Assembly: GCF_057098645.1 (NCBI RefSeq)
Contig: NZ_JBXSPU010000002.1
DNA from: a plasmid
Length of the DNA: 64,000 nt
Strand: one strand, 5' to 3'
Shown: positions 27,011 through 30,000 of the stretch, in pieces
Numbering within the stretch: position 1 is the first letter of the stretch
How the letters are laid out: each line of letters starts with the position of its first letter
Position numbers: made by a program

Positions 27011-30000
27011 TTATAACATTTCGTACGGTTGGAAAAATGTTACTAAATGCCCGTCAGGCAGGGAGGCCGATATGCCCGTTGACTTTCTGACCACTGAGCA
27101 GACTGAAAGCTATGGCAGATTCACCGGTGAACCGGATGAGCTTCAGCTGGCACGATATTTTCACCTTGATGAAGCAGACAAGGAATTTATCGGAAAAAGC
27201 AGAGGTGATCACAACCGTCTGGGCATTGCCCTGCAAATTGGATGTGTCCGTTTTCTGGGCACCTTCCTCACCGATATGAATCATATTCCTTCCGGCGTCC
27301 GGCATTTTACCGCCAGACAGCTCGGGATTCGTGATATCACCGTTCTTGCAGAATACGGTCAGAGGGAAAATACCCGCCGTGAGCATGCAGCGCTGATACG
27401 TCAGCACTATCAGTATCGTGAATTTGCCTGGCCCTGGACATTTCGCCTTACCCGTCTTTTATATACCCGGAGCTGGATAAGCAACGAACGTCCTGGCCTG
27501 CTTTTCGATCTGGCGACAGGGTGGCTTATGCAACATCGTATTACTGAGATTCTACGTCAGTACTTTATAAGGCACTGTTGCAAATAGTCGGTGGTGATAA
27601 ACTTATCATCCCCTTTTGCTGATGGAGCTGCACATGAACCCATTCAAAGGCCGGCATTTTCAGCGTGACATCATTCTGTGGGCCGTACGCTGGTACTGCA
27701 AATACGGCATCAGTTACCGTGAGCTGCAGGAGATGCTGGCTGAACGCGGAGTGAATGTCGATCACTCCACGATTTACCGCTGGGTTCAGCGTTATGCGCC
27801 TGAAATGGAAAAACGGCTGCGCTGGTACTGGCGTAACCCTTCCGATCTTTGCCCGTGGCACATGGATGAAACCTACGTGAAGGTCAATGGCCGCTGGGCG
27901 TATCTGTACCGGGCCGTCGACAGCCGGGGCCGCACTGTCGATTTTTATCTCTCCTCCCGTCGTAACAGCAAAGCTGCATACCGGTTTCTGGGTAAAATCC
28001 TCAACAACGTGAAGAAGTGGCAGATCCCGCGATTCATCAACACGGATAAAGCGCCCGCCTATGGTCGCGCGCTTGCTCTGCTCAAACGCGAAGGCCGGTG
28101 CCCGTCTGACGTTGAACACCGACAGATTAAGTACCGGAACAACGTGATTGAATGCGATCATGGCAAACTGAAACGGATAATCAACGCCACGCTGGGATTT
28201 AAATCCATGAAGACGGCTTACGCCACCATCAAAGGTATTGAGGTGATGCGTGCACTACGCAAAGGCCAGGCCTCAGCATTTTATTATGGTGATCCCCTGG
28301 GCGAAATGCGCCTGGTAAGCAGAGTTTTTGAAATGTAAGGCCTTTGAATAAGACAAAAGGCTGCCTCATCGCTAACTTTGCAACAGTGCCAGCTGGACCG
28401 CCTCGGTCGTGATCTTCGTCATCTCATTAATACAGTGCACGACCTGACCGCGAGGGGGACCGGTCTGAAAGTGCTGACCGGTCACGGGGCGACTATCGAC
28501 ACAACAACGGCCGCTGGCAAGCTTGTCTTCGGTATCTTTGCCGCACTGGCGGAGTTTGAGCGCGAACTGATTGCTGAAAGAACGACTGCAGGTCTGGCAT
28601 CAGCAAGAGCCCGTGGGCGGAACGGCGGCCGACCTTATAAAATGACGCCAGTCAAACTGCGACTGGCAATGGCATCAATGGGACAATCAGAAACAAAGGT
28701 CAGTACGCTATGCCAGGAACTTGGGATAACCCGGCAAACTTTGTACAGGCATATTTCCCCTGTTGGTCAACTGCGGGCGGACGGGATCAAGCTGTTCAAC
28801 CGTGGATAATTTGAACGGACGGAAAAATCTGGGGTTCCGGCGTAGTACCCCTATCACCTCCACATTTTTGCAACAGTGCCTTATAAATGGCAGCCTTATG
28901 TTTACTTGCCAAGATGGGCTACCATATGATGTTTTATACTGAGCAATATTAATATTATCTTTAATGGAAAAATTAAGCCCACTAAGTGACCCACTGCTAT
29001 ATGGCTCTATTGTGAAGACGCCTGAGGGTAAAAATTTATACATGGTTGTCCCTATGTCTATTATTGCAAGGTTGACAATATTATTCGTTTTATAAATTTG
29101 AGCGTTTAAAATCACACATCAAAGCAATTAGTCAGGATAAACAACAATACCCAGTGCTTCGAGAATCAGTTCTTGCTGCCAGGCTGCAATTTTGATACCT
29201 GATGTATCGACTTTGCGGGGATCTAAACCGTCGAGTTCGGCGTGGCATAAATTGGCACCCTGTAGGCTAAATTGCCCCCAGACATCTTCGGAAAAAACAC
29301 CTCGACTTAAGTCTGACTCTTTCAGTGATGCACCCGCTAGGTTCGTTCCTATCCAGCGATTTTCAAACAACTCACATTTTTCTAAACAAACCCTCTCCAT
29401 ATTGGCATAGGAAAGATTACATCCAGAAATAAATGCTGAGCAAAAGTACATACGATTACTCACTTGATGGGCAAAGTTTGTTCGGGAAAAGTTGGCACCT
29501 TTTAAATCACACGCACGGAACTCTATACCGTAGCAATTGGCATTACTGAAGTTTGCCATCGCAAGTTGGCATTGTTGGAAACTTGCATCACGAAGATCTG
29601 CGACATCAAAGTGGCAGCCTTCGATATCACCCTGTTCAATGAACTTGCAGTTGACGAATGTCGTATCACGCAAGTTAGCACGTCGAAAGTCGCTGCGAAT
29701 GAATGTGCAAGCGGTGAAGGTGAGATCACTTAAGTCTTTATGTGAAAAGTTGTGGTGCCGATATGTATGATTGTAGGTTTCCATGAGTACTCCTTGTTGA
29801 AAGGAGGGCTAGACTACCATTATACATATGCCAAGACATTAAAATAAAAGCCTGTTACATCAACACATTACAACCCCTCAATTTACCTGTTTTAAGTGGT
29901 CAAATTGGCGCGTAGAGCGCCTATCGCTCTTGCATTGGCACGCGGCCCTGTTGAAAAAAGTTATTCGCTTTAGATAGGGTTAGGAGAGCCGTGCTTCGCC

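Follow-up and report, generated by a model that had tools for sequence, protein, structure and literature searches.

The 14-nt sequence TTTGCAACAGTGCC, found beside qnrS1 at positions 28867-28880 on the + strand of a plasmid DNA window (the whole stretch analysed, 64 kb in length), is very probably the tip of a 29-bp fossil of the left end of an IS26 relative, called IS-X here, which was probably severed by a Tn3-family transposon (called TnX) and has no detectable role today. From its sequence, the 29-bp stub is best described as an ordinary insertion sequence (IS) end remnant of an IS26 relative which has become fixed in the qnrS1 module. The features of the region are as follows.

24126-24945, + strand: IS26 copy A, complete, 820 bp.
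27571-28390, + strand: IS26 copy B, complete, encoding Tnp26 with G184N.
28391-28809, + strand: 3' part (419 bp) of the tnpR (resolvase) gene of TnX, taken from the ORF list with serine recombinase matches; its 5' end is cut by IS26-B.
28814-28851, - strand: right terminal inverted repeat of TnX (GGGGTACTACGCCGGAACCCCAGATTTTTCCGTCCG... on the - strand), whose GGGG tip at 28851 adjoins the stub.
28852-28880, - strand: 29-bp stub, read as the IRL (transposase-promoter) end of the IS26-clade element IS-X, with its outer tip at 28880.
28867-28880, - strand: 14-bp terminal inverted repeat (GGCACTGTTGCAAA on the - strand), exact and identical to six IS26 termini.
28881-29127, no strand: AT-rich spacer (33% GC, 247 bp) from the stub tip to the qnrS1 stop codon.
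29128-29784, - strand: qnrS1 (NF000056, QnrS family, 516.8 bits; annotated as QnrS1 in matching plasmids).
30088-30337, + strand: truncated left end of ISEcl2 (IS2-like, IS3 family) with an IS2 TnpA-like N-terminus, cut by IS26-C.
30338-31157, - strand: IS26 copy C, complete, inverted relative to copy B.

The search of the window has shown six other exact copies of the 14-mer, and these form the two ends of each of three complete IS26 copies (820 bp). The identity with the IS26 terminal repeat, which had been pointed out in an earlier note on this DNA, is therefore exact. The same note had described the 14-mer as standing alone between the resolvase remnant and qnrS1, and this was also borne out, as neither a transposase gene nor a second repeat attached to it was found among the ORFs and repeats of the window. 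The 14-mer starts 57 bp past the stop codon of the truncated resolvase gene (28807-28809), the stub starts 42 bp past it, and the tip is separated from the qnrS1 stop codon by 247 bp. The nearest complete IS26 copies are located 461 bp to the left of the stub and 1,457 bp to its right. With the outer tip at 28880, the missing body of the IS would have run leftwards. No complete IS6/IS26-family element (~820 bp of body including a transposase gene, and another terminal repeat in inverted orientation) was found at the stub. An end of this family is present, with the 14-bp repeat of the GGCACTGTTGCAAA type at 28867-28880 and a subterminal sequence which is continuous with that of a full-length member at 29 of 29 positions.

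The earlier note had also considered a chance match and had suggested extending the alignment outwards. On extension the match was found to grow to a 29-bp left end of the IS6 family, read from the outer tip inwards as GGCACTGTTGCAAAAATGTGGAGGTGATA|GGGGTAC, and the chance explanation was thereby rejected. Near matches do arise in ordinary DNA, for example GGCCCTGTTGAAAA at 29944-29957, which faces qnrS1, agrees with the IS26 repeat at 12 of 14 positions and is native qnrS-upstream DNA. However, an exact copy of the 14-mer is expected only ~0.0005 times (5e-4) per 64 kb on both strands, the observed count was reached in none of 100 shuffles, and the match continues for 29/29 positions with a real IS end and halts exactly at a transposon tip. 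A fortuitous resemblance to the IS26 terminal repeat thus carries a practically negligible probability, and TATCACCTCCACATTTTTGCAACAGTGCC beside qnrS1 is read from this continuity as an IS remnant rather than native DNA.

The source element was sought in the metagenome collection by a scan in which the stub had to continue with a base different from the native T, so that the qnrS1 module was left out. Only two loci were obtained, each of them a full-length IS26 relative of 819 bp that has both terminal repeats. These showed 89.0% and 90.4% nucleotide identity to IS26 and 91.8% to each other. One copy is on RCUM01000098.1 of S. marcescens (L012 3684-4502) and the other, a variant, is on the JGI metagenome contig Ga0308166_1001809. 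Their left ends begin with GGCACTGTTGCAAAAATGTGGAGGTGATAAAATTATGG, are identical to the stub at 29/29 positions and then have A where the window has G at position 30. The copy on RCUM01000098.1 encodes an intact 234-aa Tnp26-like DDE transposase, WP_046899122.1, which is named IS6 family transposase [Serratia marcescens] at NCBI. This S. marcescens element is complete, whereas the window retains 29 bp only. Three S. marcescens assemblies and three contigs from assembled reads (Logan) carry the element at one locus next to feoAB, and target-site duplications are absent from the intact copies. More distant relatives showed a graded agreement with the stub, with 28/29 positions in a Serratia liquefaciens plasmid, 27/29 in an IS of a K. 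pneumoniae plasmid and 24/29 in IS26. The S. liquefaciens relative has G at position 30, and therefore the breakpoint could be 29 or 30. Serratia should be regarded only as the place where matching intact copies are seen at present, and not necessarily as the donor. A 22-mer of the inner stub gave one match in a genome-collection scan. The alphaproteobacterial MAG in question is AT-rich and lacks the terminal repeat, and the match was taken as chance.

IS26 itself is a close known comparison, and three copies of it are present in the window. Its IRL has the same 14-bp repeat GGCACTGTTGCAAA and a shared GGTGATA block at positions 23-29, and the end matched by the stub is the end upstream of the IS26 transposase gene. 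IS26 also has a body and a second repeat, whereas the stub is without both. Beyond the 14-bp repeat the IRL matches at 10/15 positions (P ~8e-4), which makes 24/29 in total, and the IRR agrees at only 20/29; hence near-identity to IS26 past the repeat was not found at either end. The differences from the IRL are at positions 15, 17, 18, 19 and 22. The 14-mer might still be taken as what was left over from IS26 after deletion of the rest of the element, since the repeat is identical to that of IS26 and three copies lie nearby. Against this, the following 15 bp differ from the IRL at 5 and from the IRR at 9 positions, and the same 15 bp match IS-X at 15/15. Five changes within 15 bp do not resemble IS26 variation, because the three copies in the window differ mutually by at most 3 bases in 820. 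An IS26 leftover is hence hardly credible. As the stub agrees with IS-X at 29/29 positions and with IS26 at 24/29, it is assigned by sequence comparison to a distinct IS26-clade element of 819 bp, IS-X, which is 89-90% identical to IS26. The suggestion of the earlier note that the 14-mer could be the scar of a lost IS6-family element is consequently upheld in kind, in the form of a 29-bp left end, but not for IS26 as its identity, because of the 5 differences in the interior 15 bp.

The similarity to the IS ends at 29 bp, and the Tn3-family repeat and the resolvase gene adjoin there. The match with IS-X breaks at position 30, which is the first G of the complete TnX terminal repeat. A Tn3-family terminal repeat (~38 bp, starting with GGGG and occurring as an inverted pair around a tnpA/tnpR element) was recognised by comparison with E. 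coli plasmid p12A2 (L005, NZ_CP128591), in which a repeat of the TnX type is present at both ends of a 3,886-bp tnpA-res-tnpR element. The two p12A2 copies (L005 2905-2936 and 6759-6790) are inverted, 97% complementary, and enclose tnpA (938+ aa) and tnpR. The res-tnpR part of the window has 76% nucleotide identity to this element through to the repeat tip; the p12A2 element is only 76% identical to TnX, and the left half of TnX is missing in all copies seen, with ISKpn19 in its place in each of those examined. A full-length tnpR of 204 aa is present in pIMP-SZ1515 (L003). For the solo copies of the repeat, which come from pCoo, a Citrobacter plasmid, Xanthomonas, Yersinia and Arsenophonus, homology always stops at one and the same CCCC tip. 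Repeats of the form GGGG(G/A)TGTAAGCCGGAACCCCAGAAA..TTCCGTC are known from Tn3-family transposons and miniature elements (10.1101/2020.12.23.424275; PMC6851574), and 28814-28851 has both the GCCGGAACCCCAGA...TTCCGTC core and the GGGG tip in common with these published repeats. A terminator hairpin after tnpR, suggested by the GGGGT...ACCCC symmetry, was also considered and was replaced by the transposon-repeat reading in view of the bounded p12A2 element and the solo copies. The TnX-type repeat (window 28818-28851) was observed in ~3,100 PLSDB records, and ~1,250 of these are outside the qnrS1 module, in Escherichia, Salmonella, Yersinia, Arsenophonus and Xanthomonas, often solo and with no transposase annotated nearby (for example L002 4001-4035, L008 3001-3033 and L009 5001-5053).

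When a junction is made by the transposition of a transposon, the transposon end is always intact and the IS is the broken partner. Since a complete transposon end adjoins an IS broken at 29/30, the insertion of TnX into IS-X is the parsimonious explanation. Formerly the left end of IS-X would have lain downstream of qnrS1 at a distance of 247 bp. TnX would have entered IS-X between bases 29 and 30, probably at the 5-bp target TATCA, through either insertion or intramolecular replicative transposition. The other ~790 bp of IS-X would have been moved to the far side of TnX or deleted, and the body may then have been lost in later rearrangements associated with ISKpn19 and IS26, leaving a stub which would now hitch-hike with qnrS1 as a historical marker. 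The reciprocal junction (IS-X body, TATCA duplicate and TnX left repeat, i.e. AAGGTGKCCATAATTTTATCA followed by GGGGTACTACGCCGG) was not found in PLSDB, and the ancestral state of an intact IS-X beside qnrS1 (IS-X followed by TTATAAATGGCAGCC) is likewise absent from PLSDB plasmids. Apparent full-coverage matches to IS-X beside qnrS1 were seen to be two joined pieces and not intact IS-X. Neither a target duplication nor the reciprocal junction is available, and the region has seen many later IS-mediated deletions; these facts would also suit an adjacency of stub and Tn3 repeat which arose by unrelated deletion or illegitimate recombination and not by transposition of TnX. However, the transposon repeat is complete and the break coincides exactly with its outermost base, the repeat family ends at this same base in five independent contexts, and a random endpoint would rarely land on it. 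An origin by deletion is therefore considered unlikely, and the severing of IS-X by TnX is preferred.

The Zhou group has drawn the platform as ΔISEcl2-qnrS1-ΔtnpR-ISKpn19 and has proposed a unit transposon, Tn6292, of 7,314 bp with 38-bp repeats enclosing qnrS1 (PMC5027574, PMC5034289, PMC7319535). In comparison with the published platform (PMC5027574, PMC5034289), the window carries the tnpR fragment, qnrS1 and the truncated ISEcl2, an element named in this platform in the same reports; a longer version of ISEcl2 is present in pIMP-SZ1515. The platform of the window is identical in sequence to that of pIMP-SZ1515 and ~1,850 other plasmids. In their discussion of qnrS1, neither the stub nor the repeat directly after tnpR is mentioned (PMC5027574, PMC5034289). 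No description of the stub was found in the literature searched, and one may exist elsewhere. In pIMP-SZ1515 the Tn6292 repeats (GGGGTTCGAGG...) bear no relation to the repeat found just past tnpR. The tnpA fragment beside res has 87% amino acid identity to the TnpA of p12A2, whereas the fragment beside the proposed Tn6292 IRL has only ~33%, and the two fragments lie on either side of ISKpn19. The transposon lineage to which tnpR belongs ends at 28851 and qnrS1 lies outside TnX. Hence, because of the 87% versus ~33% identities and the end repeat which belongs to tnpR itself, the Tn6292 drawing (L003 5373-5410, 8463-9461 and 12649-12686; window 28391-28851) is probably a mosaic of parts of two Tn3-family lineages. 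As a separate observation, the segment of pIMP-SZ1515 from IS26 to the proposed Tn6292 IRR (L003 12242-12420) appears on translated reading to hold the 5' part of an ArsR-type regulator truncated by IS26.

The stub was found to be widely distributed along with qnrS1 and accompanies this gene in almost all plasmids that have it. A 241-bp segment comprising the tnpR end, repeat, stub and flank was present at a coverage of at least 80% in 1,847 PLSDB plasmids, the stub with 20 bp of native right flank was found in 1,877 PLSDB records, and the qnrS1 region at an identity of at least 99% in about 1,975 plasmids. The order tnpR-repeat-stub-qnrS1 is fixed in about 1,850-1,880 plasmids. Copies of the platform with 93% identity (L006, L007), which looked divergent, were left out, as their fragmented ORFs suggest error-rich assemblies. 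Plasmids without the stub are later truncations by IS1 (L001) or ISKpn19 (L023). In the latter, K. variicola p2020C01-081-107k (L023 ~3500), the ISKpn19 end adjoins the base after the stub (28881) and the stub is deleted; in another plasmid (L004 ~4000) an ISKpn19 end adjoins CCC and the stub. The earlier note had held that the same 14-mer at the equivalent position in qnrS1 contexts which never carried an IS6-family element nearby would speak against a scar. The 14-mer does occur at the equivalent position in these about 1,850-1,880 plasmids, and the objection is moot because the 14-mer itself belongs to the fixed IS6-family remnant.

The same note had also raised the possibility that the 14-mer might serve as a target for IS26. 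According to this explanation the stub would still be a working end or target, its perfect 14-bp repeat being bound by Tnp26 or the IS-X transposase. By pairing with the IS26-B left end (27571), the stub could move a 1,310-bp unit of IS26 plus the resolvase fragment, or IS26 translocatable units could be drawn to it through targeted conservative recombination. The repeat has no mismatch and stands in inverted orientation to the left end of IS26-B, 1.3 kb away, and IS26-B encodes the G184N variant of Tnp26, which is reported to be more active. In work by Harmer, Hall, Pong and colleagues, Tnp26 is reported to recognise the terminal repeat and to act at a single IS end. The stub is oriented like IS26-C, but is not a functional copy. 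However, no IS26 left or right end in either orientation was found at the stub junction in 72,556 PLSDB plasmids, and all PLSDB stub matches with an identity of at least 99% keep the native right flank, so that the outer junction is essentially invariant. Where the stub was followed by a base other than the native one, the metagenome scan gave only intact IS-X copies and no fusion of the stub to foreign DNA. Junctions expected of an active solo end, such as new flanks, IS26 fused at the tip or 8-bp duplications, were absent from both PLSDB and the metagenome scan. There is also no 8-bp duplication around 27571-28880, where only the 6-bp TTATAA is shared, in the wrong register. A working end or IS26 target is accordingly very unlikely. 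No promoter-like site using the TTGCAA of the repeat was found and the IS-derived -10 region is gone. The stub is hence apparently an inert fossil with no gene, no usable promoter and no transposase use seen, its inertness being deduced from the lack of variant junctions.

The palindrome TTATAA was observed to flank both the left end of IS26-B (27565-27570) and the outer tip of the stub (28881-28886). This match (7 nt inverted or 6 nt direct) was examined as a target duplication and rejected, as the flanks CTTTATAA and TTATAAAT do not form an 8-bp duplication; it is probably a coincidence in AT-rich targets. Two directly oriented IS26 copies forming a pseudo-compound transposon around qnrS1 were not found, as copies B (+) and C (-) are inverted. 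IS26-B differs from copies A and C by GG to AA at positions 613-614, which changes Gly184 of Tnp26 to Asn, and IS26-C differs from copy A by one base at position 780. The IS26-bounded qnrS1 block was seen to split a Tn2/Tn3-like transposon with blaTEM (25161-25198, 27072-27570 and 31153-32493), which has perfect 38-bp repeats at 25161-25198 and 32456-32493 and whose tnpA has codons ~1-166 to the left of IS26-B and ~546 to the end to the right of IS26-C. Moreover, the 12-mer GAGGGCTAGACT occurs twice, at 29804-29815, ~20 bp ahead of the start codon of qnrS1, and at 30082-30093, across the boundary to the left end of ISEcl2 (TAGACTGGCCCC...).

As to where the qnrS1 segment came from, the chromosomal QnrS nearest to it is that of Photobacterium japonica with 86% amino acid identity. 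The P. japonica locus aligns with the gene (78% nucleotide identity) and part of the upstream region, and no homology was found between it and the spacer downstream of qnrS1 towards the stub (28881-29127). The near match at 29944-29957 was also tried as a second IS6-like end, which would give a compound geometry; the AACTTTTTTCAAC block is native upstream in P. japonica, with no other context found. As it is native upstream DNA there, the match is taken as a coincidence. It can be speculated that the stub marks the first mobilisation of qnrS1, in which a Serratia-type IS26-family element, and not IS26 or ISEcl2, captured the gene from a Vibrionaceae chromosome, but such a capture is unlikely. 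If it is true, the edge of the progenitor DNA would be formed by the AT-rich 247 bp that reach to 28881. In a weaker variant of this proposal, the perfect repeat may still be recognised by Tnp26 as a predicted cryptic end.

qnrS1 is among the commonest plasmid quinolone-resistance genes. The value of the stub is practical, for annotation and for the history of the module, and not conceptual, and no new mechanism is implied. In automated and manual annotation the 14-mer, which is not an IS26 end, can be mistaken for one when IS26 events around qnrS1 are reconstructed. The severed IS-X end is a weak hint that a Serratia-type IS26 relative was present in some earlier host of the module. Read together with the adjoining Tn3-family repeat, the stub would place the events of the module in an order, with IS-X beside qnrS1 at the beginning, followed by the insertion of TnX and then by the ISKpn19 and IS26 rearrangements.
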